Positions 270 through 22,589 of a stretch of DNA of 64,000 nucleotides are shown one piece after another (the stretch's first letter is position 1; every line of letters begins with the position of its first letter). The notes below the pieces were generated by a model. It was not told the DNA's origin and did no database searches. It saw only the letters and a list, made by a program, of their open reading frames with translations. The position numbers and the translations under genes were made by a program. The stretch is from NCBI GenBank assembly GCA_049513715.1, contig JBEKVV010000004.1, forward strand, positions 128,001 through 192,000, in the 5' to 3' direction. This DNA comes from Candidatus Bathyarchaeia archaeon (lineage in GTDB: Archaea > Thermoproteota > Bathyarchaeia > 40CM-2-53-6).

Positions 270-445
270 TGGTGCGGGGAAGGGGATTCGAACCCCTGAA
301 GGCCTACGCGGATTCTACTGTTCTGATTCCTCTACGCCACAGGATCCCTTCTCTCCAGGCCGAAACGAAACGCTTTCGATCTTAAGTGTGGCCCCACCCA
401 GAACCGGGCGGACCTGCCCCTTTGGCCTGGCTCGGGTACCCCCGC
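270..445 (-). tRNA. tRNA-Leu(TAA) with three BHB introns (30/31, 37/38, variable arm), CCA encoded
   Basis: Removing 388-412, 346-380 and 304-331 gives GCGGGGGTACCCGAGCCAGGCCAAAGGGGCAGGACTTAAGATCCTGTGGCGTAGGCCTTCAGGGGTTCGAATCCCCTTCCCCGCACCA, a full class II cloverleaf; each junction fits the helix + 3-nt bulge geometry. Confidence 0.9.
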
Positions 446-580
446 GCCGCACAACCCCACCAAACCCCAACCCAATCTTTAAGCTTCTTCCAAAGCAACC
501 GACCGCCAAGGTTCCAGGAAACCGTTCTTTTGCTGCCAAACCCTCAAGGCTTTTAGTTTCGTAAAGCCGGTTCACGGGTT

Positions 581-6752: not shown

Positions 6753-7331
6753 CTAGACATGTAGTGGGGTCAGCGTATAGTATACTATATCCGTGCGTCG
6801 GTCAACCACCGCTAGGATCAGTTCCTTCTTCTCCCGTTCTGCGATCGTCAGAAGCTTTTCCAGTTTCCGCAGGCTCGCCTCTCCGCCCTCGTAAACGATG
6901 GATATGAGTCGCCTGAGTGGACCTTTTCCGTAAATATCGAAATCAAAGTTTCCACCGGATTCTCTGACAATATAACCCCTATCTCTCAGATCCCGATAGA
7001 CTAAGTATTTGATCCAGATTTCGGGTTTGACGAGGGAGAATTTCCTGACGAGGTCTCGCAAGTTAACTTCTTTTTCGTCCTTCTTTGTAGAGACGTGGAT
7101 TTTCTGTTTCTCGATGAGGTAGAAGGACTCGTAGGGTGTGAAGTAGAGTCTGTCCTTCTTGAGGTCTCCGAACCCCCTGTCCCGGAGTTCCATGAGGTCA
7201 GATTTGTAGGGTATGTACACACCGTGCGCATCAGAGAATGCGCTCCAAGGGGTAAACTGAGGCTTCTCCTCCGCTTGAATAGGAGGTTTGGCACTCTGCG
7301 GAGGCGGCGCGCTATTCTCCATGAAGACCAC
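6753..7331 (-). CDS. endA: tRNA-splicing endonuclease subunit, probably structural (non-catalytic)
   Basis: YESFYLIEK, YLVYRDLRDRGY, LILAVVD..DIVYY; the GxK(Y/F)G.DF loop and catalytic His are not evident. Confidence 0.85.
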   Translation of the reverse strand: MVFMENSAPPPQSAKPPIQAEEKPQFTPWSAFSDAHGVYIPYKSDLMELRDRGFGDLKKDRLYFTPYESFYLIEKQKIHVSTKKDEKEVNLRDLVRKFSLVKPEIWIKYLVYRDLRDRGYIVRESGGNFDFDIYGKGPLRRLISIVYEGGEASLRKLEKLLTIAEREKKELILAVVDRRTDIVYYTLTPLHV

Positions 7332-9982: not shown

Positions 9983-10097
9983 GGGCCCGTAGTCGAGCCA
10001 GGATTAAGACACAGCGACTCCAATGAGTCGTGTAGGCCTTCGGTGCAAATGCGGGGAAAGCCTGGGATCCGGGGTTCGAATCCCCGCGGGCCCGCCA
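9983..10097 (+). tRNA. tRNA-Arg(TCG) with two introns (29/30, 37/38), CCA encoded
   Basis: Introns 10015-10035 (ACAC/GTGT helix, GACTC hairpin) and 10044-10058; spliced stem CAGGC/GCCTG, loop CTTCGGA. Confidence 0.92.
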
Positions 10098-12126: not shown

Positions 12127-12543
12127 CTACGCCATGTTCTCGCGAAGGATCCCTGCGACTTCGGTCGGAAGCAGAGTAGCCTTCCAGTTCAGGTCGACTG
12201 CGATGCATTTCAAGTAGCCTTCAGCGGCCAATTCGTTCGTTTCCTTTTTGTTTAGTTGAAACTCGTATGTGACGGTCTTATCGGTGATTTCCTTGACCTT
12301 CATTACGACTTCAATGAGGTCATCGTACTTGCAGGCTACCATGTATACACAGTGTGCTTCAACCCTTGGTAGCATTATTCCGTATTTCTCGCGAATTTTG
12401 GCGTGAGTTGCACCCAGTGAGCGGTAGAACTCTTGCTCGCAGGCCTCGAAGTACCTGAAGAAGTTGGTATAGTGCATCACTCCCGCTACATCTGTGTCAA
12501 CCCAACGAACACGAAACGCGTATTTGAAACTCATCGCGGTCAA
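12127..12543 (-). CDS. Acyl-CoA thioesterase (YbgC/4HBT family)
   Basis: VRWVDTDVAGVMHYTNFFRYFE. Confidence 0.88.
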   Translation of the reverse strand: MTAMSFKYAFRVRWVDTDVAGVMHYTNFFRYFEACEQEFYRSLGATHAKIREKYGIMLPRVEAHCVYMVACKYDDLIEVVMKVKEITDKTVTYEFQLNKKETNELAAEGYLKCIAVDLNWKATLLPTEVAGILRENMA

Positions 12544-12624
12544 CTATCCCATTGTCCGGCTGAAAGTACTCCATAGATTTAACGAAGCCGTATTGCAAAT
12601 GCGAAAAGGCTGCGGGATTCTCTG

Positions 12625-12636
12625 AAAGCTTATAGG
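12625..12636 (+). promoter_or_regulatory. BRE/TATA promoter of tRNA-Tyr
   Basis: GAAAGCTTATAG about 30 nt upstream of the tRNA 5' end. Confidence 0.55.
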
Positions 12637-12662
12637 GCACGCGCCAGAGGCTTTGGTTTTGT

Positions 12663-12837
12663 CCCGCGGTAGCTCAGCCTGGTAGAGCTTCCGAGTCGCT
12701 CTAACTAGGAGTGACGGAGACGCTGTAGGTGTGCGCCCAAGGCGCGGCCATGTCAGCCTACTAGGCTAACAACCGAAACCGGACTGTCGCTGGTTCAAAG
12801 CAGGTGTTACCCTGTGAAAATCCGGCCCGCGGGACCA
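12663..12837 (+). tRNA. tRNA-Tyr(GTA) with three introns (30/31, 37/38, 59/60), CCA encoded
   Basis: C1:G72, A73; introns 12694-12721, 12729-12777, 12800-12820; spliced stem TCCGG/CCGGA, loop CTGTAGA. Confidence 0.92.
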
Positions 12838-13668
12838 TTATTTTGATGGTCGTGGGATCGGGGCTCCATTCTCCTTCAAAAGCAGAAGCCGTTCTTGAAG
12901 AGTTGTATGTGGTGGACAGGTACCAAGGGCTTTCCATACTAGGAATTTCGTATTCTTCGACAGATTGGCGAATCCCACTCTCATCATCCAGTAATGTAGC
13001 TGCTTACGACCCTTAATCCATATCAAGTGAAGTGGTACTCGACGCATCTGCTTGCTTTGGTATACACTACTATAGAAACGAAAACCCAGGTTCTTGAGCA
13101 AGCGAGTGGTGCCACTTGCGAGCGAGGGACTGCATGTTGAGAAGTTCAAAATGGGATCAGAGTATTCGGATCTTGCGTTCTTGCCAAATGAGAGTGAGCC
13201 GTCCGTGTCAAAGAGACCTCTCAAACAAGCTGAGTAGAACGATTTGTCATTGGAGTCCAGGAGAACGTCGGGTATACGGGCTCTGTACTTGGGCCCAACT
13301 GGCAATCCAAGAATCTTGGATTTGAAATAGAATACGGCCATGGAGCCGTACATCAGGTTCAGTTCTGACTTTTCAGGGCGCTCGTAAGTGCTACCTCGAA
13401 GATTGTAGAGCCGGGAAACAAGCGTCGAAACATGCGAAAGGAGGTAATCGCGGTCTTCTCTGTTATGCCCTGTATAGATCCATCGATACTCTGTTCCTCC
13501 ACGTTTCGGCCTGCAGAACTTCAGTTGGCCGTCACCCAAATGAATCCCGATTTCCTCCGCAAGCTCTATCGACATTTCTTTGGGGATCGTAACCTGTCTT
13601 CGGTCATCATTCCAACTGCGTGGCAGTGTCGAAGGAATCGGAGGCCTCATCCTTGCATATCGCTCCAA
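12838..13668 (-). CDS. Two-motif LAGLIDADG homing endonuclease (start uncertain)
   Basis: LAEEIGIHLGDG and CLRGLFDTDGS motifs; stop codon directly abuts the tRNA-Tyr CCA; no intein splicing motifs or host protein. Confidence 0.88.
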   Translation of the reverse strand: MERYARMRPPIPSTLPRSWNDDRRQVTIPKEMSIELAEEIGIHLGDGQLKFCRPKRGGTEYRWIYTGHNREDRDYLLSHVSTLVSRLYNLRGSTYERPEKSELNLMYGSMAVFYFKSKILGLPVGPKYRARIPDVLLDSNDKSFYSACLRGLFDTDGSLSFGKNARSEYSDPILNFSTCSPSLASGTTRLLKNLGFRFYSSVYQSKQMRRVPLHLIWIKGRKQLHYWMMRVGFANLSKNTKFLVWKALGTCPPHTTLQERLLLLKENGAPIPRPSK

Positions 13669-13762
13669 GAGTGTGAGTAATTGCGACTACTAATGCGAGA
13701 GAGCTAGGTGAAACGAATCTGGAATCGTACTAGTCCTACCGTGCAGTATTCAATGAAGGACA

Positions 13763-13910
13763 GCTGTAGTCCTGTACCTTGATGGTATGGGGAGTTCAGC
13801 TTACTAGGCGTACAACGTCTGAAACCGGAGTGTCGCTGGAGAACCGTTCAATGGTTCGGCGAATTCAAAATGGAGTGCATAACTCTATGAAACTCCGGCC
13901 CGCGGGACCA
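13763..13910 (+). repeat. Partial second tRNA-Tyr(GTA) copy (positions 31-76) with introns at 37/38, 53/54, 59/60
   Basis: Exons identical to the upstream gene except position 44 (G vs C); introns 13770-13823, 13840-13863, 13870-13893; no acceptor 5' strand or D arm found upstream. Confidence 0.88.
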
Positions 13911-13978
13911 TAACCGAGCTGTAAACGAAACCGTGTTCAATGACTCTTTCACCCTGAGAGCGGGTTCGTTTCCTGATT

Positions 13979-14455
13979 CTACGTGGTCGGTTTGGATACC
14001 TTGTAGAGAAACAGCTTGCGCTCAAGACCACCACTGCTTCCTATTGCGACTTTTTCAGGTGTGAAGCCTGGGAGCTCATAGTCAAGAGAAACGATTCTGG
14101 CGCCCTCTTTGAGTTCCTGTTTCAGTTTGGGTGCTAGCTTCGAGTTCACGCTATCTGAGAGGTAGATGATGACGGCGTCGGCAGGGGAAACGTCGACGTC
14201 CATGAAGTCTGCTTGGATTACTTGTGCTTCGATGCCGGTGGATTTTACGCGTTCCTGAATTCGGGAAACTCGTTCGGGGTCGATCTCGATTCCAACAACC
14301 TTCGCCCCGAATTTTCGTGCAGCTTCGATTAGAATGCGTCCGTCACCGGCTCCCAAGTCGTAGATTGTCTCCCCGCGTCGAATTTGGGCGAGCGAGAGCA
14401 TCTGGTGCACTATGGATTTTGGTGTTGGAATGTATGCTACGTCTAAGTCTACCAC
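13979..14455 (-). CDS. Class I SAM-dependent methyltransferase
   Basis: YIPTP, YDLGAGDGR, VGIEIDP. Confidence 0.88.
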   Translation of the reverse strand: MVDLDVAYIPTPKSIVHQMLSLAQIRRGETIYDLGAGDGRILIEAARKFGAKVVGIEIDPERVSRIQERVKSTGIEAQVIQADFMDVDVSPADAVIIYLSDSVNSKLAPKLKQELKEGARIVSLDYELPGFTPEKVAIGSSGGLERKLFLYKVSKPTT

Positions 14456-14520
14456 TCTATTCGTCCTCGTCGCAAATTCATTTCAGGTCTTCGAGGAGTT
14501 GGCGACCCAGAGAAAGAAAG

Positions 14521-16461
14521 CTAACGCTTCCTCCTGACCGATCGCCTTCGCTTGCGCTTCGAAGGTTTCCTCCGCAGAAACAGCACGAAGGAGGCGGCAG
14601 ACGCCGCGACGACAGTGATGAGCAATGTCACTTCATACAGCCAAATCGGAGCTAACACATTCAAATCCAGAAAACCTGTGGAGCCACCAAAATACGGGTT
14701 GCCATTGACTGCAACTGTCAGGTTGTGTTCTCCGAGCTGATACCATCCGAAGGCGAGTGTGATGTTCATTGTTCCATCGACAAGCCTTTGACTTGTAATG
14801 AGTTTGTTGTCGAGCCAAATGTCGGCTTGGAGGTTCGGGAGTAAGTTGCCGAATTCATCTGTGGCTTTGACGGTAATTGTGCTAGGCTGAGCTGCCTGCA
14901 TGTTTGGTGAACTGGAGAACTGTATTCTGGTGGCAAGCTTACCCAAGTTCAGGGTTGTCAGCTGGTCGCTGCCCGCAAGGTAGAGATTGCCAAACTTGCC
15001 ACCTGTAAACAAGAAGCGAATGTAGTATTCACCGGGCTTGAGTGCGAAGTGTTCTTCAAAACGTGCAATGCCTTCGTTGTCGGTTTGGTTCGTATCGATG
15101 TCATACCATTGTTCGTGGTCGTAATACTGAAGTTTCACTGGCAGTCCTGAAAGCCTGTTGCCAGATAGGTCTGTAATGGTGGCTGATATTGTTGCTTGCC
15201 GTAGGTAGGTGGCGTTTACGGAGCGAGGTGGTATGATCTGGGTGTTCTGGAGGGTGAGGCCTGATAGTTTTTGGTTGGCTACGAGCACTGTGAAAGTATC
15301 TGCAGTTCTGGATTGGATGGTAATGAATACGTGCCGGGCCGGGTCTTCGAAGGTTTCTCCGACTTGGTAGGGGGCATCGTTCAGCGTTTTGGTTGATGTG
15401 TTCGCGTCCATGACTTGAACGATTCCGCCGCCAGTGTCGCGTGATTCATCTATTCTCGTGATTAGGACGCCTGAGCTAGGAAGGCTGTCGTCAAACCCCA
15501 CCCTGTCACGGAGTTCAACCATGTAATAGTCGGTAGAGCTGTTGGTTGTTATCTTGATTGTTCGAGTTCCGGAGCTTGTTTCTAGCGGGTGGAGTGTTTC
15601 ACTTTGGATGGAGAGGTTGCCTGTGGAAAGTTGAACGCTGTCTGGCAGAAGCCATCCCAACTTGACTCTACTCCACGCCTCAAGCTCTGCGGGCGAGGTG
15701 CCCGGAGGATTGCCCAGCCACAACCCAGTTGCCATAAGGGACCACCTCCCCACAAACGGATCTGGTGTGTTAGGGGCGGCGTTCGCGTCGTATAGATCTA
15801 GAAGGCCTAGCAAGTGCCCGTACTCATGCGTATAGACACCTAATGGAGAATGCCCGTGTGTTTCCATCTCAGGGGCTATTGCGGCGGCGTTGACGACGGC
15901 CCCGTTGTTTGCTTGAATCTGCAGGTCATACCAGTAAGCCTCGGACCAAATGTCGTCGGATGTGGATGCCGCATCCTCTTGTCCTGCTCCTGCGTGAACC
16001 ACAACGATCTTGGAGTACGCATTGAAGTCAACATCCGCTTCGGCTGCTGTGATTGCGTCTCTGATCAATTGGACAGGGTTTGCATCGCTTCCCGGCTGCG
16101 ATGGGTTGAGGTCAGCGCCGTAGAAGGACATAGGGTTAGGAAGCTGATACCAGCCTACGGTTTTCCCGATAACTTGGATTTCGCCGTATGAAACGTCGGA
16201 GTAGTATTTCGCCATCTGGTTGAAAATCATATTGTCAATTGCAGTTTTGTTGGCCGTGTGTTTGACATCGGAGAATTCAACTAGAATCGCAAGCGTGTTT
16301 TGTGGACCTGAGGCAGGGGAGACTGGAGGGTAGTACTGAGGTCCAACGCCCTTCACCCCCAGAAGGTTGGGGCGCATTGCGGCTGCGTAGTCAGGACGCA
16401 TGGACGAGGCTAATACGCAGAAGAGAAAGACCACGGCGATGAGTACTTTTGAGGTTTTCAT
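14521..16461 (-). CDS. M6-family (immune inhibitor A-like) secreted metalloprotease with C-terminal membrane anchor
   Basis: Signal peptide, VVHAG, HEYGHLLGLLDLYD, WSLMATG, Ig-like region, TM helix and basic tail. Confidence 0.9.
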   Translation of the reverse strand: MKTSKVLIAVVFLFCVLASSMRPDYAAAMRPNLLGVKGVGPQYYPPVSPASGPQNTLAILVEFSDVKHTANKTAIDNMIFNQMAKYYSDVSYGEIQVIGKTVGWYQLPNPMSFYGADLNPSQPGSDANPVQLIRDAITAAEADVDFNAYSKIVVVHAGAGQEDAASTSDDIWSEAYWYDLQIQANNGAVVNAAAIAPEMETHGHSPLGVYTHEYGHLLGLLDLYDANAAPNTPDPFVGRWSLMATGLWLGNPPGTSPAELEAWSRVKLGWLLPDSVQLSTGNLSIQSETLHPLETSSGTRTIKITTNSSTDYYMVELRDRVGFDDSLPSSGVLITRIDESRDTGGGIVQVMDANTSTKTLNDAPYQVGETFEDPARHVFITIQSRTADTFTVLVANQKLSGLTLQNTQIIPPRSVNATYLRQATISATITDLSGNRLSGLPVKLQYYDHEQWYDIDTNQTDNEGIARFEEHFALKPGEYYIRFLFTGGKFGNLYLAGSDQLTTLNLGKLATRIQFSSSPNMQAAQPSTITVKATDEFGNLLPNLQADIWLDNKLITSQRLVDGTMNITLAFGWYQLGEHNLTVAVNGNPYFGGSTGFLDLNVLAPIWLYEVTLLITVVAASAASFVLFLRRKPSKRKRRRSVRRKR

Positions 16462-16510
16462 TCCGACAGGACCCGGTTGCTAATGGGAGAAGGTCAAACA
16501 GGAAACAACC

Positions 16511-16524
16511 CGAACACTTTAAAC
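16511..16524 (+). promoter_or_regulatory. BRE/TATA promoter of tRNA-Asp
   Basis: CGAACACTTTAAAC about 30 nt upstream of the tRNA. Confidence 0.55.
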
Positions 16525-16550
16525 TCTCTTGAGGATTTGTATGAAACCGG

Positions 16551-16656
16551 GCCCTGGTCGTTCAGTGGTCTAGGATGACGGCCTGTCACGTCGTCGACGC
16601 GGGTTCGAATCCCGCCCAAAGGAGCGGAAAGAATCTTCTCCTGGCGAGGGGCGCCA
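16551..16656 (+). tRNA. tRNA-Asp(GTC) with one intron in the acceptor stem (68/69)
   Basis: Removing 16619-16648 restores GCCCTGG/CCAGGGC, G73, CCA; strict BHB with CGCC/GGCG central helix and AGGAG/CTCCT outer helix. Confidence 0.9.
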
Positions 16657-16672
16657 ACCCGCGTACCCACGA

Positions 16673-16813
16673 CTACTCATCAAGGCCGGACAGCTTTTTC
16701 ATGTCCATGTTGCTGAGTTTCTTGCTTTTGCAGCGGGGGCAGGAGGGTTCTTTGGCGTTTGTGAGAAATTCGTAGCTGCAATCATTGCACGCGTAGAAGG
16801 CCGCTTTGTCCAA
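16673..16813 (-). CDS. Small zinc-ribbon protein (46 aa, below the ORF-track cutoff)
   Basis: TTG start; MDKAAFYACNDCSYEFLTNAKEPSCPRCKSKKL... with CxxC-x12-CxxC. Confidence 0.65.
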   Translation of the reverse strand: MDKAAFYACNDCSYEFLTNAKEPSCPRCKSKKLSNMDMKKLSGLDE

Positions 16814-16893
16814 GATTGTACCCGTGTTTCACTGTGTTCTTACTCAGTCATTAAATATCATTTTGCTGGTTTTGCTGGCGGTTTTGATTTACC

Positions 16894-17835
16894 ATGATGC
16901 CAGTTAATGAGAAGGATGTCGTAGCGGCAATCGAGAAAGTGAGCCCTGCGGTCGTGTCCATCGCAACCCTTAGGGTCATTCAGGAGAACCTGTTTGATGC
17001 TGTTCCAGTTCGCGGCTTGGGCTCGGGTATTATTTTCGATTCTAACGGTGGGATACTTACGAACCACCATATCGTTGAGGACGCTGAGAGGGTTCAGGTG
17101 GTTACTGCGAACGGGAAGAAGTTCCAGGGAGAGGTGTTGGGCTCTGATGCGATGTCGGATGTGGCTGTGGTCAGGGTGGATGGCGAGGGATTGCCTGCCG
17201 TTAGGCTTGGGGATTCCGATAAGTTGGTTGTGGGTCAAATTGCGATCGCAATCGGTAACCCGTACGGGTTTCTTCTACCCGGGCCGACGGCGACGGTTGG
17301 TGTAATCAGTGCTCTGCAACGGCATCTCCACGTTGAGAACCACATGTACGAGGACCTGATTCAAACCGACGCTTCAATCAACCCAGGAAACAGCGGCGGC
17401 CCCTTGGTGGACAGCTCAGGCCAAGTCATTGGCGTCAACACGGCTAACATACCGTTCGCGCAGGGCATAGGGTTCGCGATACCAATCAATAATGCGCGGA
17501 AGATTGCGAAGGAAATAATCCAGCACGGACGCGTCCCGCGACCGTACCTAGGTATCTCAGGCCTGACTCTGAACCGAGACATAGCCGAATCCTACAATAT
17601 TCCACACGAGAAGGGAGTGCTGGTGGTTAGGGTGGGGAGGGGTAGCCCAGCCCATAGGGGTGGCATGTCAGCCGGAGATGTGATTCTTGAGGTCGACAAG
17701 AAACCTCTGAAGGCTTGGGAGGATTTGCAGCATGTGGTTCAGGAGAAGAAGGTGGGAGAGAGTTTGGAATTGTTCGTGGGCCGCGACCAAGAGCAAGGCA
17801 AGATGAACATAGTCCTGGAGGAAGCGGCCAGGTAA
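16894..17835 (+). CDS. htrA: HtrA/DegP-like serine protease with PDZ domain
   Basis: GSG, TNHH, DVAV, IQTDASINPGNSGGPL, PYLGI. Confidence 0.92.
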   Translation: MMPVNEKDVVAAIEKVSPAVVSIATLRVIQENLFDAVPVRGLGSGIIFDSNGGILTNHHIVEDAERVQVVTANGKKFQGEVLGSDAMSDVAVVRVDGEGLPAVRLGDSDKLVVGQIAIAIGNPYGFLLPGPTATVGVISALQRHLHVENHMYEDLIQTDASINPGNSGGPLVDSSGQVIGVNTANIPFAQGIGFAIPINNARKIAKEIIQHGRVPRPYLGISGLTLNRDIAESYNIPHEKGVLVVRVGRGSPAHRGGMSAGDVILEVDKKPLKAWEDLQHVVQEKKVGESLELFVGRDQEQGKMNIVLEEAAR

Positions 17836-17986
17836 ATCTTCGTCCTAGCCACAGATTGGCGCCATTTTTCCTTTCTATTATTGTTGAGTAGGGGGGAGGG
17901 GGCAGTAGGGCAGTATGGGCCCCATCGTCGTGTTTCGGGATAAGATTTAAGCCAGTCATACTGGACGACAGACCTGAATCCAAACT

Positions 17987-18045
17987 AGGTTGCTGATTCC
18001 TCCGCCCTCCGGGGACTGGATCCAGTACTCCAACCTCTGAGCACC
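17987..18045 (+). ncRNA. Candidate box C/D sRNA
   Basis: Degenerate C box TTGCTGA, D box CTGA at 18037-18040, short terminal stem, TTTAAG upstream; internal boxes weak. Confidence 0.25.
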
Positions 18046-18124
18046 AACCAAGCCACGATTCGGGCTTTCTGGTGTTTTGCTGGCGGCTTGGCCGTAGCCT
18101 GTGATTCTTGTCGCGTGATCTTGG

Positions 18125-18460
18125 TTGGTGTTGTTCTTGAGGAAGAGTGTTCTTCGTATCTGGATTCGACAGCGTGAACTAGATCTGTTGGATGAATTGG
18201 CGAAACGCCTCGGGTTGCCCTCTAGAAGCCGACTTACAAACATCGCTCTGCAGTTCTTTTTCGAGCTAAACCATGAAGATCTCCCTGCTGCGGGGCAGAG
18301 GCGCAGGGTCAAGATATTGTTGGATCCATCAATCAAAGAAGAACTGGACGAGCTCTCCACATGCTTGCTCATTCGAAAAGCTTACCTGACGAAGATCGCG
18401 CTCAACGAATTCACACGTCGTTACCGGGCGACTTCTGTTCAACGAGATCATGAACCCTAG
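18125..18460 (+). CDS. Tandem ribbon-helix-helix DNA-binding protein
   Basis: Two repeats of strand + LDEL...S/K..L..IAL..F. Confidence 0.6.
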   Translation: MVLFLRKSVLRIWIRQRELDLLDELAKRLGLPSRSRLTNIALQFFFELNHEDLPAAGQRRRVKILLDPSIKEELDELSTCLLIRKAYLTKIALNEFTRRYRATSVQRDHEP

Positions 18461-18540
18461 CCGTACGTTAGGCCGCCTAACACAGTTTCGATTCCAGCCA
18501 CCTTTCGTCAAGGGAATGGATCAGGTCGGGGTTATCTGAG

Positions 18541-18921
18541 ATGGCAAATGAGTCGCATAAAAGCGACGATCCAGAAGTTGACATTCAGCAGGTAATCTGC
18601 AAATTAGTGCTAGCTCTGAAGCGATTGGAGGGCTACAATCCGGTTCTAGATCTGCCGCTCATTGAGGAGGTAGCCCGCAGCGCGGCTTTCATCAGACTCG
18701 GCGAAAGCTTCCTGATCAATCCGAAATGCTCTCCGGGAACGTACGCCAGTATTTCTGATGGGATAGCGAAGCATGCGTCCAGAATGCGCCAAGCCATGAA
18801 GGAGCTGGCAGCTACGAGAGCGGAGCGAATGCGCTACCAAACTGCAACGGCACAAGCCGCGCAGGTCAAAGAGATCGTGGATAAGATCATTCACCAGGAG
18901 AATGAGCATGACAGCGCGTGA
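18541..18921 (+). CDS. Helical protein, putative terminase small subunit
   Basis: 126 aa helical ORF overlapping the terL start; assignment by position only. Confidence 0.5.
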   Translation: MANESHKSDDPEVDIQQVICKLVLALKRLEGYNPVLDLPLIEEVARSAAFIRLGESFLINPKCSPGTYASISDGIAKHASRMRQAMKELAATRAERMRYQTATAQAAQVKEIVDKIIHQENEHDSA

Positions 18922-20245
18922 AAGATTCCGAGAAGAGGTAAGTAAGGCTAAGTGGAATGCGGCCTACTTTGCCGAAATCTTCCTCTCTCTGAGACCGTTT
19001 CCATACCAAGTCGACTTTCTCAGGGACGATGGAAAAGAGATTGCCGCGGCATGCGGTCGCCAGGTTGGAAAGACCACCCTAGCCGCAATCAAGGGTTTGC
19101 ATTTTGCCTTCTTCCATCCAGACGTGACTGTGCTGATCATCAGCTCCACGCTCCGCCAAAGCATGATCCTGTTCGCAAAGATCCGCTCAATGACAGAGTC
19201 GAACCCAATTCTCCGAATGAAAGTGAAGAACTCGAACCGGACAACAATTGAATTCGATCACGGCAGCCGAATCGTGGCGTTGCCCTGCGGACCGACCGGT
19301 TACAGCCTACGAGGCCACACCGCGGACATGATCATCCTAGATGAAGCGAACTTCGTGCCGGAAGAGATTGTGGACGGCGTCGTAAGGCCCATGCTCATCG
19401 CCAAACCCAACTCAAGACTCATCATGGTCTCCACACCTTGGACTCGAAACCATCCATTCTACCGAGCCATCTCTGAGAAGGGTCGAGGATTTCATGTCTA
19501 CAGATGGCCGACAAGCCTCAGCCCACTAGTCTCCGCGGAGAAGCTTCAAGCCGACCGCAACGCCCTCGACGCTCTCACATTCAGAAGAGAGTACGAAGCC
19601 CAGTTCGTCGAAGAAAACGATTCCTATTTCCCAACCCACCTCATCTCGCAGTGCGTAGACGGAAGCTATGAACTCCTGGAGGATCAGGACGTTCTCCAAA
19701 CCGAACACAAAGGCGTCTTTCACCTGGGCGTGGATTTTGGGAAGCGGGTTGACCACAGTGTCCTAGCTGTTCTTGAGGAATCCGCAGGCCGACTTCAACG
19801 CTTAGTCTATCTAAAACAGTTCCCGCTGCAAACAAATTACGCAACGGTAATCGGCTGGATTCGCCGCCTCAACGAGGGTTTCGGATTCGAGAGTGTAACC
19901 CTAGACCAGACAGGAGTCGGAGAAGCACCAGTCGAAGACGTGAAAACCTTCCTTCCAAACGCTGAAGGCGTCATTCTGACGAACAAGATGAAACTGGATA
20001 TTCTATCGAACCTGCAACTTCTCATGCAACATGAGAGGTTGAAGATACCGCTCGAAAAGACCATAATCACCCAGATCAACGAGCAGCAATACGAGATCAA
20101 TAAGACAGGGGAACTAATCTTCTCACACCCAACCCGATCACACGACGACAAACTCTGGGCTTTGGTTTTTTCAGCTTGGGGAGCCAGAAAACCACCTCGC
20201 CCAAGCTTCTTGCCAATAACCCGCTCCTTTGGACTAAGACCCTAA
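18902..20245 (+). CDS. terL: Terminase large subunit
   Basis: PFPYQ, Walker A GRQVGKT, Walker B IILDEA, STP coupling motif, FRREYEAQF, nuclease GVDFG..D and HDD. Confidence 0.9.
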   Translation: MSMTARERFREEVSKAKWNAAYFAEIFLSLRPFPYQVDFLRDDGKEIAAACGRQVGKTTLAAIKGLHFAFFHPDVTVLIISSTLRQSMILFAKIRSMTESNPILRMKVKNSNRTTIEFDHGSRIVALPCGPTGYSLRGHTADMIILDEANFVPEEIVDGVVRPMLIAKPNSRLIMVSTPWTRNHPFYRAISEKGRGFHVYRWPTSLSPLVSAEKLQADRNALDALTFRREYEAQFVEENDSYFPTHLISQCVDGSYELLEDQDVLQTEHKGVFHLGVDFGKRVDHSVLAVLEESAGRLQRLVYLKQFPLQTNYATVIGWIRRLNEGFGFESVTLDQTGVGEAPVEDVKTFLPNAEGVILTNKMKLDILSNLQLLMQHERLKIPLEKTIITQINEQQYEINKTGELIFSHPTRSHDDKLWALVFSAWGARKPPRPSFLPITRSFGLRP

Positions 20246-20379
20246 CTGATCGAAATGATTGCCGGAACATGTAACGACTCAGCCGGTGACCACTTTGGGT
20301 CTATGGGCAATCTTGTCAGGATCGCTGATTCTCGGGTCTTGGAAAAGTTTAGGTAGTCTCACCCCTTGCTCGTGTGGTA

Positions 20380-20574
20380 GGGCCCGTAGCTCAGTCAGAT
20401 CCACGCAAAATGGATCCTAGATAGGTAGAGCATCGGAAACACCGTGCAATTCCACGGGTGTTGGTGATGCTTTTACCCTGGGTTTCTGGAACCTTAGGGA
20501 AGCCACCCGAAAAGACACCGCTTAACCGCGGTCTTGGGGAAGGGTCCCGGGTTCAAATCCCGGCGGGCCCGCCA
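20380..20574 (+). tRNA. tRNA-Lys(TTT) with four introns (D loop 17/17a, 30/31, 37/38, 43/44), CCA encoded
   Basis: Introns 20397-20422, 20437-20468, 20476-20504, 20511-20541; spliced GGGCCCGTAGCTCAGTCAGGTAGAGCATCGGGCTTTTAACCCGAGGGTCCCGGGTTCAAATCCCGGCGGGCCCGCCA. Confidence 0.9.
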
Positions 20575-20769
20575 CCTTCACTGAGTGGCTGTACCATTTT
20601 CTTGATGCCAGCAGGACAAAGTCCTCCCGCGAGTAGCCACCATCAGTCTTACGTGAGCATATGCCAGGATTTTTTCTGGTTTGGCGTTTGGAGCGAGCTG
20701 TCGTCAAAGACACCGCTCCCTTGACCACACTAGAACAATTCCTCAGCCCGACTTGTATTCTGCAGCGCA

Positions 20770-20794
20770 GGGCCCGTAGTTTAGTCAAGGTGAG
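20770..20794 (+). repeat. tRNA 5' fragment (positions 1-24), tRNA-Lys-like, intron-less
   Basis: GGGCCCGTAGTTTAGTCAAGGTGAG vs spliced Lys GGGCCCGTAGCTCAGTCAGGTAGAG, 20/25 identical. Confidence 0.65.
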
Positions 20795-20915
20795 TCCGAC
20801 TGTTTTCGTACACTTTTAGTGGGTGAGTGGCGTGACTGAGCCTAGGCAACGCGGAAGGCTATCTCAGCGCAAAGTCTCTTTAGTAAATCCAAAAGCTAGT
20901 CGTTTCGGGTCTATT

Positions 20916-21262
20916 ATGAGCCCGCAATTCATCCGCTCCAAAAGAGCTTCCAATCTTAGCAAATCCGTGGAGCTTGAGGCGTTCCTTGGTTCCTGCAGAA
21001 ACGATTGGCTAAAAGAGAAAGCCGAAGAGGCATTCACAGAAATAAAAGCTCATTATGAAATTGGCGACAAGGTCCAGAAGGACAGATGGCCGCGCTATTA
21101 CGTCTTGACATGGGGATCAACAATCTGTATGTTCATAAGCTTGGGCGCGACTGGCGCTTAACCTACTCGCTCGTAGCAGATGAAGTAGGAATCATGGCCT
21201 TCTGCCTTGAAATCCTGACACACAAGCAATATAACAAAAGGTTTGGTTACGGGAACACCTAG
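20916..21262 (+). pseudogene. RelE-like toxin with a frameshift near 21112
   Basis: ...IGDKVQKDRWPRYYVLTW continues in the -1 frame as GINNLYVHKLGRDWRLTYSLV...LEILTHKQYNKRFGY; one G missing in a G4 run. Confidence 0.6.
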
Positions 21263-21519
21263 CGCACGCGGATGCTTTTCGCCAATGCCCGCTTTAACGT
21301 GGCGTTGTCAGCGAAGACCCAGACGATTTCACGATCATTCAAGATTATTTTGTTGCTTGCTAGCAAGTACTCTATGACACGGTTGAAAGTTTGGTATTGT
21401 ACCTTGCGCGGGAGGCTTTGCCACAGGGCCTTCTTGGTCGGATAGTTTTTCGCTTTGTGTATGGCTTCTTCCACCATCAGTATGGTTCCTAGTGTGGGTT
21501 CGTGGGCGTTTTTCACCAT
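21259..21519 (-). CDS. Small winged-helix protein, putative antitoxin/regulator
   Basis: PTLGTILMVEE..LWQSLPRKVQYQTF..VIEYLLASNKI; convergent with the toxin, 4-bp overlap. Confidence 0.65.
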   Translation of the reverse strand: MVKNAHEPTLGTILMVEEAIHKAKNYPTKKALWQSLPRKVQYQTFNRVIEYLLASNKIILNDREIVWVFADNATLKRALAKSIRVR

Positions 21520-21578
21520 CAGACATTTCCTCTCCCTTAGAGTTACTACTACAGTAGACTACTATGGTAATGTGCTAT

Positions 21579-21613
21579 TTATACATAATTGTATATTATA
21601 CAAGTATGTATAA
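21579..21613. promoter_or_regulatory. 35-bp AT-rich palindrome (operator or recombination site)
   Basis: TTATACATA-A-TTGTATA-T-TATACAA-G-TATGTATAA, one mismatched pair. Confidence 0.6.
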
Positions 21614-21700
21614 TGCTTTAATTGTCGGAAAACGCTATGCCCGCCACATCCATCAAGGGTTGTCATGAAGATTTTGCTCAAGATCCCTGATCTCATGATG

Positions 21701-21731
21701 TTGGTGGGTTCAAATCCCACCGGCCCAACCA
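21701..21731 (+). repeat. tRNA T-arm/acceptor 3' fragment, left direct repeat
   Basis: TTGGTGGGTTCAAATCCCACC-GGCCCAACCA. Confidence 0.8.
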
Positions 21732-21779
21732 TCTCGTCTGTGTAATGACCGTTCTTTCACGAGAGTATAATTGAGTCCA

Positions 21780-22043
21780 TCATTTGTAGGCCCTTCCTCT
21801 GAACTCGACAGCGAGAACGGCAATCGTTTTGGATTCCCAGTCGACCTCATACTCGATGCGGATTTCTCCTATTCGTATTCTGTAGGTGTCATGCATCCCA
21901 GCCAGTTTCCTGACATCGTATTCAGGAACTGGCGCTGGATTCTGACTCAAAGCCTCTAAAACCAGCAGGACTCCACGCGCGTAGTGGCTAGGTATACGCC
22001 TAAGCGACTTCCTAGCACGGTTTGAAATAATGATTTCGAACAG
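21780..22043 (-). CDS. relE: RelE/ParE toxin (87 aa, apparent CTG start, missed by the ORF track)
   Basis: FEIIISNRARKSLRRIP...NPAP..DVRKLAGMHDTYRIRIGEIRIEYEVDW..TIAVLAVEFRGRAYK*. Confidence 0.85.
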   Translation of the reverse strand: MFEIIISNRARKSLRRIPSHYARGVLLVLEALSQNPAPVPEYDVRKLAGMHDTYRIRIGEIRIEYEVDWESKTIAVLAVEFRGRAYK

Positions 22044-22048
22044 GAGAG

Positions 22049-22252
22049 CTACGCACCGAGTTCCTTTCGGAGCTGGCCTAAGGTGACGTAGCGGCCCTTC
22101 TCAACCTCTAGCCGACCCTGTCGGATCAGTTTTCTTTCTCTGGCAGTCACTCGCTCTTCCGGAAGTAGGGCCGCCCTTAAGCGAAGAAGCTCTATCTTCA
22201 CGTCGTCAAGCTTCGTGATTACTTTACGCAATTCAGTCTTGGTTACTGCCAT
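22049..22252 (-). CDS. Antitoxin upstream of relE
   Basis: 67 aa with C-terminal KGRYVTLGQLRKELG; canonical antitoxin-toxin order. Confidence 0.75.
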   Translation of the reverse strand: MAVTKTELRKVITKLDDVKIELLRLRAALLPEERVTARERKLIRQGRLEVEKGRYVTLGQLRKELGA

Positions 22253-22373
22253 TAGATTATCCCGCACATCTGCAGTCTAACCAACTAGTAAAAGAATCTG
22301 GCGTCTGGCAGAGCCTTATCTCCTTCCTCCTACGGGGTGGGTATTCTACTTAGAAACGTGATTAGTCCCACAA

Positions 22374-22404
22374 TTGGTGGGTTCAAATCCCACCTGCCCC
22401 AGCA
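22374..22404 (+). repeat. tRNA T-arm/acceptor 3' fragment, right direct repeat
   Basis: TTGGTGGGTTCAAATCCCACC-TGCCCCAGCA; first 21 bp identical to 21701-21721. Confidence 0.8.
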
Positions 22405-22445
22405 CTTTCCTGTTTACCCGTTGCCGTCGAGCATTGCACCTACTC

Positions 22446-22589
22446 CATTGGAGGTCGGCATGTGATGTGCTGGTCGGTGATGCTTTTACCTTTTCGGGAA
22501 ACGTAAACCCAGGGAAGCCACCCGAAAAGAAACCGCTTAACCGCGGTCTTGGGGAAGGGTCCCGGGTTCAAACCCCGGCGGGCCCGCCA
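22446..22589 (+). repeat. Partial second tRNA-Lys(TTT) copy (positions 25-76) with introns at 30/31, 37/38, 43/44
   Basis: Exons differ from the intact gene at positions 28 and 60 only; introns 22452-22481, 22489-22519, 22526-22556. Confidence 0.88.

Follow-up and report, generated by a model that had tools for sequence, protein, structure and literature searches.

A LAGLIDADG homing endonuclease gene enclosed by tRNA-Tyr sequences in a Bathyarchaeia genome: a putative cassette carrying tRNA introns

The 64-kb stretch of DNA analyzed here (hereafter, the window; C4:128001-192000 of the Candidatus Bathyarchaeia archaeon genome denoted G000) contains two loci, at the genes for tRNA-Tyr and tRNA-Lys, where a predicted working tRNA gene with several introns is followed by cargo DNA and then by a partial copy of the same tRNA gene. 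The cargo at tRNA-Tyr, the main subject of this work, is a putative LAGLIDADG homing endonuclease gene (HEG). G000 is a 2.79-Mb metagenome bin in 11 contigs, with completeness of 99.4% and contamination of 8.8%; positions in the window are counted from its first letter. The layout of tRNA, cargo and partial tRNA was the core of the original prediction, made from the letters of the window alone, and it is real at both loci, as are the claimed exon differences of 1-2 nt between the copies, namely two in tRNA-Tyr and one in tRNA-Lys.

In the window, ARAGORN and Rfam recover the intronless tRNA-Asp alone, missing the other tRNA genes because these are heavily interrupted; genome-wide, ARAGORN makes 29 calls, some of them doubtful, and Rfam 18 above threshold. 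The tRNA genes were located by a scan for the T-arm pattern and their introns were set by hand, so that genome-wide counts are lower bounds. The bulge-helix-bulge (BHB) geometry of the intron borders was judged by a simple positional score that takes into account the central pairs (out of 4) and the flanking helices. An attempt to enumerate possible BHB intron sets blindly with ARAGORN proved much too permissive (2,497 matches) and was abandoned, and the idea of group I introns was rejected, no non-tRNA Rfam family having reached the gathering score within the window.

Copy A, the predicted working tRNA-Tyr(GUA) gene (12663-12837, plus strand), consists of four exons (12663-12693, 12722-12728, 12778-12798 and 12820-12837) separated by introns of 28 nt at position 30/31 (12694-12721), 49 nt at 37/38 (12729-12777) and 21 nt in the T loop (12799-12819); when these three introns are removed in silico, a canonical 77-nt tRNA-Tyr(GUA) remains, which ARAGORN calls as tRNA-Tyr. 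Copy B (13763-13910, plus strand) is 5'-truncated, beginning with the last base of the 5' strand of the anticodon stem and finishing at CCA, with exon-like parts at 13763-13769, 13824-13839, 13864-13868 and 13893-13910 and intron-like parts at 37/38 (54 nt), at 53/54 (24 nt) and in the T loop (24 nt). The two exon differences between the copies fall in the variable loop and the T loop. Among the introns, those at 37/38 are similar in the 3' half and unrelated in the 5' half, those in the T loop share the position and differ in sequence, and the 53/54 intron is extra in copy B. A 19-nt block (12775-12793, plus strand), which encompasses the last two bases of the 37/38 intron, the 3' anticodon stem, the variable loop and the 5' T stem, recurs at 13821-13839 with one difference and is the likely crossover zone; a contig of a minor allele changes from one tRNA-Tyr copy to the other at 13839.

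Most of the tRNA-Tyr and tRNA-Lys introns indeed differ between the copies, as originally claimed, although the variable-loop intron of tRNA-Lys is the same in both but for 1 of its 31 nt. The accompanying claim that BHB geometry is retained holds for the full copies, where 6 of the 7 introns of tRNA-Tyr and tRNA-Lys have at least 3 of the 4 central pairs together with flanking helices, but not for the partial copies, where 2 of the 6 score equally well and another one forms 3 of 4 central pairs, with the outer helix present and the inner helix absent. In the hairpin of the 37/38 intron of tRNA-Tyr, three adjacent variant letters (12745-12747) occur at 12-55% of contig depth in three of four runs and therefore point to a second, co-occurring strain with a different intron hairpin.

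The sole open reading frame (ORF) between copies A and B is the HEG (12838-13668, minus strand), which encodes 276 amino acids and whose stop codon abuts the CCA end of copy A. The product matches the Pfam family LAGLIDADG_3 (PF14528) with 27.9 bits against a curated cut-off of 22.5, and contains two LAGLIDADG helices, each closing with a conserved acidic residue; in an alignment of 13 sequences, G45 and D46 in one motif and D154, T155 and D156 in the other are invariant. When the profile of this alignment is compared with PDB, it retrieves I-DmoI (E 5e-7) and intein endonucleases (E 1e-8). The structural model (predicted local distance difference test score, pLDDT, 89.6) comprises two alpha-beta-beta-alpha-beta-beta-alpha domains in the expected order, and the closest structures found by Foldseek are intein endonucleases and I-DmoI (E 3e-10; template modeling score 0.77 normalized to I-DmoI). 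Judging by family, motifs and predicted fold, the cargo is an intact two-motif LAGLIDADG HEG. The spacer between the start of the HEG and copy B (13669-13762) presumably harbors the HEG promoter; it is identical to its counterpart in a congener, G004, at 88 of 94 nt.

Pfam families were sought in the 59 window ORFs of at least 90 amino acids (12 + 47) and in shorter cargo ORFs, and none of these belonged to an integrase or transposase family; a whole-genome search with PF00589 gave 5 matches in G000, none on the contig of the window. The original statement that recombinases and transposases are lacking thus stands for the scanned ORFs but is misleading for tRNA-Tyr, and the view of this locus as a cassette devoid of any enzyme is not supported, its only cargo being a homing endonuclease gene. 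The tRNA-Tyr cargo thus belongs to an ordinary type of mobile element, and it is the location that is unusual. Compared with known arrangements, the tRNA-Tyr and tRNA-Lys loci have direct repeats of part of the tRNA gene at both ends, like integrative elements, but no recombinase family among the scanned ORFs inside; the HEG lies on the opposite strand and starts past the CCA of a complete tRNA, unlike the intron-encoded enzymes of the rRNA type; and it is free-standing beside an intron-containing gene, as in collaborative homing.

The arrangement of copy A, HEG and copy B is shared with G004, and the two genomes show an abrupt jump in identity at the locus. Before it, the thioesterase gene is 63.5% identical at the nucleotide level and the intergenic stretch that precedes tRNA-Tyr 47% identical; within it, identity rises to 173 of 175 positions in copy A, introns included, 804 of 831 nt in the HEG and 136 of 150 in copy B; and the alignment ends exactly at the CCA of copy B, with the sequences beyond not alignable. 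The block from the tRNA start to the end of copy B is 91-99% identical, compared with 68-85%, mostly 69-73%, in the remaining 17 syntenic BLAST pieces between the 64-kb window and the G004 contig. Similarly, the HEG protein is 94% identical, compared with 56-67% for the flanking proteins, one of which reaches 93%. The HEG has a synonymous divergence (pS) of 0.057 and a ratio of nonsynonymous to synonymous divergence (pN/pS) of 0.44, so that the likeness stems from recent common ancestry rather than from constraint. Given that this likeness exceeds that of the flanks, and that the element is present in some genomes and absent from others at one and the same site, the tRNA-Tyr block, introns included, seems to have moved recently between distant relatives; the direction of the transfer is one that we infer. 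The imported block starts and stops where the tRNA sequence does, which implies crossovers in exon 1 (31 nt) and in or near the 19-nt block.

In G000, the layout at tRNA-Tyr is not an assembly join. A 10,478-nt contig from run X1 spans 12400-20546 with zero differences, and contigs of ~3.86 kb from three other runs span 12715-16580, with even depth across the tRNA-Tyr junctions. The concern raised along with the original prediction, that the duplicates might be strain-chimeric joins, is in this manner put to rest by metagenome contigs for tRNA-Tyr, whereas at tRNA-Lys none of the listed contigs bridges the repeat ends.

DNA of the HEG region matches G000 and G004 alone among the 41 genomes searched with the DNA of the locus, and a close homologue of the HEG is present in 2 of 401 Bathyarchaeia genomes, the next best being 38% identical. 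Ten other genomes of the same genus have tRNA-Tyr sites that lack the HEG, with the order thioesterase, tRNA-Tyr, methyltransferase kept wherever those genes are in view; no HEG remnants were found at these ten empty sites. The alleles can be described in terms of five parts: a, the 5' portion, which includes the introns at 30/31 and 37/38; b, the 19-nt block, mostly exon; c, a 3' end with the 53/54 and T-loop introns; d, a 3' end with the T-loop intron alone; and e, the start of copy B with its own half of the 37/38 intron. Part a, with both its introns, is common to copy A and all ten empty-site congeners. The native 3' end of these congeners is of type c, as in copy B, in six; of type d, as in copy A, in two; and devoid of a T-arm intron in the remaining two. 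The expectation that empty-site relatives would carry one of the two 3' intron sets is thus borne out in eight of the ten. Part e is found in none of the ten native genes. The commonest allele without the HEG is, then, a-b-c, and the allele of G000 reads a-b-d, HEG (antisense), spacer, e-b-c, where a-b-d is the predicted working gene and e-b-c the headless copy.

The 3' part of copy B (13840-13910) is 83-90% identical to the native genes of six congeners. Copy B as a whole diverges between G000 and G004 by 9.3%, compared with 1.1% for copy A (~8-fold), and part c is its most diverged stretch; the divergence of c between these two genomes approximates that between copy B and the c of other congeners, which fits c being host-derived and the rest imported. 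In run X22, a low-depth contig leads directly from exon 1 to e-b and on to a d-like end, and a minor organism of this habitat therefore possesses an intact e-b-d gene.

The same layout also occurs elsewhere. Among HEG relatives in metagenomes, of which the best 80 of an estimated ~1,700 stretches were analyzed (most of them 27-39% identical), three contigs from other samples (L014-16) encode a HEG that is 59% identical and lies between a full tRNA-Tyr and a headless copy. Here, the headless copy has the 53/54 intron along with 37/38 and T-loop introns of its own, and both tRNA-Tyr copies contain an extra intron near 43/44, different in sequence in each; the spacer of G000 is not alignable with those of L014-16. 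L014 and L015 share 98-100% identity in the HEG and 78-94% in the near flanks. The arrangement is therefore old and travels as a unit.

More generally, the genes for relatives of the HEG mostly have a tRNA gene next to their 3' ends. A tRNA was detected between -40 and +200 nt of the HEG 3' end in 51 of the 70 metagenome loci with at least 150 nt of downstream flank (41 of 58 clusters after clustering at 80% identity), compared with 4 of 77 loci for the 5' end of the HEG; in the remaining flanks, the background is 0.018 per 240 nt. The cluster of L014-17 is a false miss in this count because ARAGORN is blind to its multi-intron tRNA-Tyr. In whole genomes of Bathyarchaeia, 9 of 20 HEG paralogues are followed by a tRNA or a T arm right after the stop codon. 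The neighboring tRNAs represent at least 15 anticodons, Arg(TCG) and Arg(GCG) being the commonest, and of the 52 neighbors, 39 share the strand of the HEG whereas 13 face the other way. Two ORFs located near the tRNA genes in question were considered as HEG relatives and rejected, namely, one of 388 amino acids with a helix-turn-helix domain (HTH_24) between copy B and the methyltransferase gene of G004 (L001, 1587-2753, plus strand), and one of 371 amino acids, with no Pfam family, that ends 25 nt before tRNA-Lys in genome G020 (L095, G020:C7, 3016-4131, plus strand); the hhalign probability was 0.2%, and the two are unrelated to each other as well.

The tRNA-Lys locus is of a different nature. 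The predicted working tRNA-Lys(UUU) gene (20380-20574, plus strand) contains introns in the D loop (20397-20422), at 30/31 (20437-20468), at 37/38 (20476-20504) and in the variable loop (20512-20542), and yields a 77-nt tRNA-Lys when spliced in silico. The partial copy (22446-22589, plus strand) runs from the 3' D stem to CCA and thus covers the 3' two thirds of the gene; over the last 79 nt it shares 97.5% identity with the full gene, the single exon difference is in the T loop, and of the remaining introns, that at 30/31 differs and that at 37/38 differs in the middle. The 1.9 kb of cargo is a mosaic that includes the 5' stump of a tRNA, a ParE-like gene in decay, an ORF of 86 amino acids without a family and a bracketed ParE pair. 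The stump (20770-20792, plus strand) is Val-like and 92% identical over 25 nt to a tRNA 5' end at C2:437757-437781 of G000, and the decayed gene (21086-21262, plus strand) is a ParE/RelE-like toxin remnant with a weak Pfam match to ParE_like (E 0.022, below the curated cut-off). The ParE toxin gene (21783-22046, minus strand; ParE_toxin, E 1.9e-9), whose open frame has no ATG, GTG or TTG start at its 5' end, is accompanied upstream by a 72-aa ORF (22049-22267, minus strand) that matched no Pfam family and is, by position, the presumed antitoxin; the pair is bracketed by two orphan 3' ends (T arm, acceptor and CCA) of what we denote tRNA-X (21703-21731 and 22376-22404, both plus strand). A copy of the ParE pair with 80% nucleotide identity lies beside an X-type tRNA end on another contig of G004.

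The cargo of tRNA-Lys, so far as its ORFs were scanned, contains no mobility gene, and it has no raised identity to any relative. In G004, both the cargo and the partial copy are absent from tRNA-Lys and the identity is an ordinary 81%, whereas G020 has a unit of its own, in which a DUF2283 pair is flanked by tRNA-Lys and a partial tRNA-Lys whose variable-loop intron is different. In G002, G003 and G005, the native 37/38 intron is of the type seen in the partial copy of G000, and in most other congeners it is of the type seen in the full copy. Each of the four runs has a 2-kb contig that spans the cargo. As far as can be gleaned from these sequences, the tRNA-Lys locus is a hot spot for insertions where alternative intron sets occur. 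The original treatment of the two loci as one system does not survive this comparison, the tRNA-Lys cargo being a toxin-antitoxin mosaic with fragments of other tRNAs.

Several features lie in the vicinity. Just upstream of tRNA-Lys, and outside the cassette, is a gene for a large terminase (18902-20245, plus strand; Terminase_6N/6C), part of a 2.5-kb block that extends from the HtrA gene to the 5' end of tRNA-Lys (17836-20340) and also contains a weakly small-terminase-like ORF (18541-18921) and a 138-aa ORF. G003 and G014 lack this block, whereas G020 has it along with additional genes; it resembles the remains of a provirus, no further virion genes being visible. Additional interrupted tRNA genes, detected in the intron mode of ARAGORN only and with doubtful anticodon calls, are located at 270-470 (minus strand), 581-724 and 9983-10097 (both plus strand), and have a T arm and acceptor end nearly the same as those of tRNA-Lys. 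The gene for the tRNA splicing endonuclease EndA (6753-7331, minus strand) is ~5 kb from the cluster of intron-rich tRNA genes.

The recurrence of such units, predicted at the outset, was confirmed, with instances in G004, in the three metagenome contigs, at two further tRNA genes of G000 and at tRNA-Lys of G020. In G000, 25 tRNA 3' ends combine an uninterrupted T arm with a 5' acceptor strand that matches, and for three of these an orphan copy of the same 3' end lies within 30 kb downstream: tRNA-Lys, tRNA-X at C2:373502 and, with two orphan copies, a tRNA at C2:77394; tRNA-Tyr is the fourth unit in this genome. No tyrosine integrase was found in the cargo of the two C2 units, one of which contains a DDE transposase; PIN and SET proteins are present as well. 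Orphan 3' ends of tRNA-X number eight genome-wide. Two of these, C3:166054 and C3:181343, are 15 kb apart, and the first is directly followed by a 470-aa tyrosine-recombinase-like ORF (C3:166142-167554), so that the pair probably delimits an integrated element with its integrase. Furthermore, a repeat of ~50 nt that has a T-arm-like core is found many times outside the window (C4:230691-236635, C5:160035-211371, C7:4843-29667, C9:2254-4649 and C10:2454-7657), and also after the orphan tRNA-X ends at C1:892313, C5:206520 and C3:427306; it may be the attachment site or the terminus of an element family.

The explanation that we consider probable, if far from settled, is that the tRNA-Tyr unit is a free-standing HEG cassette living in a tRNA gene and the tRNA-Lys unit is an insertion scar in the 3' part of the gene. 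At tRNA-Tyr, the endonuclease would cut alleles without the HEG, at a target site that presumably lies in the tRNA gene, and the break would be repaired from a cassette-bearing allele, with the tRNA sequences that flank the HEG serving as homology arms and the crossovers falling in the short invariant exons. Since there is tRNA sequence on both sides of the HEG, any genome with a tRNA-Tyr gene offers both arms, whatever the neighboring genes, and with crossovers in exons, the introns of the donor would be copied along with the HEG. The 5' part and 3' end of the donor would replace those of the recipient, whose old 3' end would be displaced downstream. The original proposal that recombination between exons imports cargo together with foreign introns therefore fares well at tRNA-Tyr, where a block of 91-99% identity is set in flanks of ~64%, and is unproven at tRNA-Lys; its extension, that homing accounts for the extreme intron load of this genome, finds no result that ties the mechanism to the overall load. 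For tRNA-Lys, one or more insertions may be envisaged, the mover being either an integrase that acted from elsewhere and has since been lost or plain recombination between tRNA sequences.

How the bearer would escape its own enzyme is less apparent. Collaborative homing, in which an intron blocks the target, is attractive by analogy because alleles without a T-arm intron exist. It cannot be how immunity is achieved in general, given that 13 HEG relatives that face the 3' end of a tRNA have neighbors with uninterrupted T arms, as called by ARAGORN. A wider scenario can be offered tentatively, and we would not count on it, in which a widespread family of free-standing LAGLIDADG enzymes homes into archaeal tRNA genes, using exons as portable arms, overwriting the introns of recipients and perhaps adding some where an intron shields the target, with units that lack a HEG riding along.

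Along with those uninterrupted T arms, several observations weigh against this explanation. Every two-part junction of the a-b-c allele persists in the bearer, a-b in copy A and b-c in copy B, and self-immunity would hence require a target longer than the 19-nt block or some other device. No flanking tRNA duplicates beyond those of L014-16 were found at the 77 metagenome loci that had sufficient flank (the other three were too short), nor at any of the 19 Bathyarchaeia paralogue loci with enough flank; the single repeat at a paralogue locus links two different neighboring tRNAs. Copy B is better preserved than expected of a relic: all 14 columns that differ between G000 and G004 are intron-like and none fall in the 46 exon nt (P ~0.008), three hairpin pairs are changed on both sides across five B copies, and in L014-16 the 3' acceptor strand of copy B tracks the 5' strand of the full gene. 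Re-templating of copy B from working alleles at each transfer would explain this preservation. At tRNA-Lys, downstream synteny gives no signal as to which copy is native and which imported, the 3' flank being different in every relative examined, and the links across the 31-mers repeated at both ends of the cargo are those of the deposited assembly only, no listed contig bridging them. The G004 side of the comparison is the assembly as it stands, and a join via shared tRNA sequence would mimic the identity jump. Finally, the 1.7 kb around tRNA-Tyr is present in 24 runs from peat and wetland, and all of these are flagged as possible sources of the G000 DNA and so are not independent.

Among the alternatives, the one that survives best, though we regard it as unlikely, is that both loci are scars of integrase-type elements, in which case the partial copies are attachment repeats, the integrases were lost by deletion and the HEG was carried along by chance. 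Direct repeats of the 3' part of a tRNA gene around foreign DNA are the classic signature of such elements, G000 has at least one tyrosine-recombinase-like ORF after an orphan tRNA-X end, other tRNA genes are followed by several orphan ends, and the tRNA-Lys cargo is a typical islet mosaic. The tRNA-Tyr unit fits this picture poorly: it consists of exactly one gene, with no space for more, its borders are the same across lineages in which the HEGs are 59% identical, and the HEG family sits beside a tRNA in 51 of 70 loci without flanking repeats; nor was any integrase family found among the scanned ORFs of the window or in the cargo of the C2 units. It is still harder to maintain that the partial copies are functional, copy B being an alternative or spare 3' module of tRNA-Tyr that is used via long-range or trans splicing or DNA rearrangement. 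The lack of exon differences between G000 and G004, the two-sided hairpin changes and the matched acceptor strand in L014-16 speak for such a role; we nonetheless find it improbable because copy B has neither the acceptor 5' strand nor the D arm, diverges about eight times faster than copy A, and has a leader (before 13763) that pairs with exon 1 of copy A at 2 of 4 central positions only (by hand reading, with exon 1 the sole partner tried), and because conservation can also arise by the re-templating mentioned above. That the identity jump is an artefact, the G004 contig or the G000 bin having threaded the cassette of a co-occurring strain via tRNA sequence, is conceivable in that both genomes are metagenome bins and short-read contigs do break within tRNA genes, but most improbable given the contigs of 10.5 kb and ~3.86 kb that cross all tRNA-Tyr junctions of G000 with no difference, the 27 HEG differences by which the G004 cassette departs from that of G000, and the same layout in three contigs from other samples.

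A full-text literature search, with subscription journals outside its reach, found no report that pairs LAGLIDADG enzymes with archaeal tRNA genes, and a full-text search for LAGLIDADG in Bathyarchae found no paper; the tRNA-Tyr unit is, in these terms, the first homing-endonuclease cassette with a tRNA intron set found for archaeal tRNA genes. The I-DmoI and I-Tsp061I enzymes of rRNA introns share with it the fold, the two-motif monomer, the archaeal provenance and the tie to stable-RNA genes with BHB introns. Their genes lie inside the intron, on the sense strand, whereas the tRNA-Tyr HEG lies outside the exon-intron structure, antisense and downstream of CCA. Archaeal elements of the SSV and pNOB8 types, as in Sulfolobus, leave a partial tRNA repeat at the far end, with the tRNA piece borne by the element restoring the gene. 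The units described here differ from these in having no integrase, whole or split, among the scanned cargo ORFs, and repeats of more than 140 nt, introns included; the tRNA-Tyr cargo is, in addition, only ~0.9 kb.

By analogy, the nearest parallel in print is SegB beside phage tRNA genes, SegB homologues being enriched next to tRNAs of many isotypes (PMC13096335). In the free-standing HEGs and intronless homing of T4-like phages, the HEG likewise lies outside introns and inteins, beside tRNA genes, and spreads by break repair with co-conversion of flanking markers, as would be expected here by analogy (PMC13096335, PMC6083498). The tRNA-Tyr HEG differs in residing in a cellular archaeal chromosome rather than a phage, in abutting the tRNA end within tens of bases and, in its own clade, in having tRNA sequence on both sides and a tRNA gene with BHB introns. 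It also belongs to the LAGLIDADG family, whereas SegB is a GIY-YIG enzyme. Collaborative homing has been described for F-CphI, a HEG beside the intron-containing psbA gene of cyanophage S-PM2 (PMC6083498), which resembles the tRNA-Tyr unit in that a free-standing HEG neighbors a gene whose intron could block self-cleavage, the two moving together, and differs in that a group I intron in a protein gene takes the place of protein-spliced BHB introns in a tRNA gene. In Caldiarchaeum subterraneum, a 1.8-kb insert separates a tRNA fragment from the restored tRNA-Thr(GGU) gene, which has a different intron content, and Sugahara et al. 2012 proposed a mobile element to account for intron gain and the scattering of fragments (PMC3293823). 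A predicted DNA recombinase and an upstream 5' fragment stand there in place of the HEG and the downstream 3' copy found here, and the tRNA-Tyr locus adds to this case empty-site alleles and an identity jump that dates the transfer.

How introns arrive in archaeal tRNA genes is an open question, and the tRNA-Tyr locus offers a concrete and testable way for them to spread, in which a complete intron set has moved between genomes that are ~30% diverged, together with the gene for an enzyme that possibly drives the move. Relatives of this HEG lie beside at least 15 types of tRNA, and these LAGLIDADG enzymes, which are likely to target tRNA genes, may serve as a source of new specificities. For annotation, it follows that intron-bearing partial tRNA copies in such genomes should be taken as footprints of mobile DNA and not as extra genes. 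If the wider scenario sketched above is true, cassettes without a HEG, such as the toxin-antitoxin units at tRNA-Lys, would make use of the same exon-to-exon recombination, and homing at the DNA level would be a real route for the arrival, movement and turnover of BHB introns in archaeal tRNA genes.

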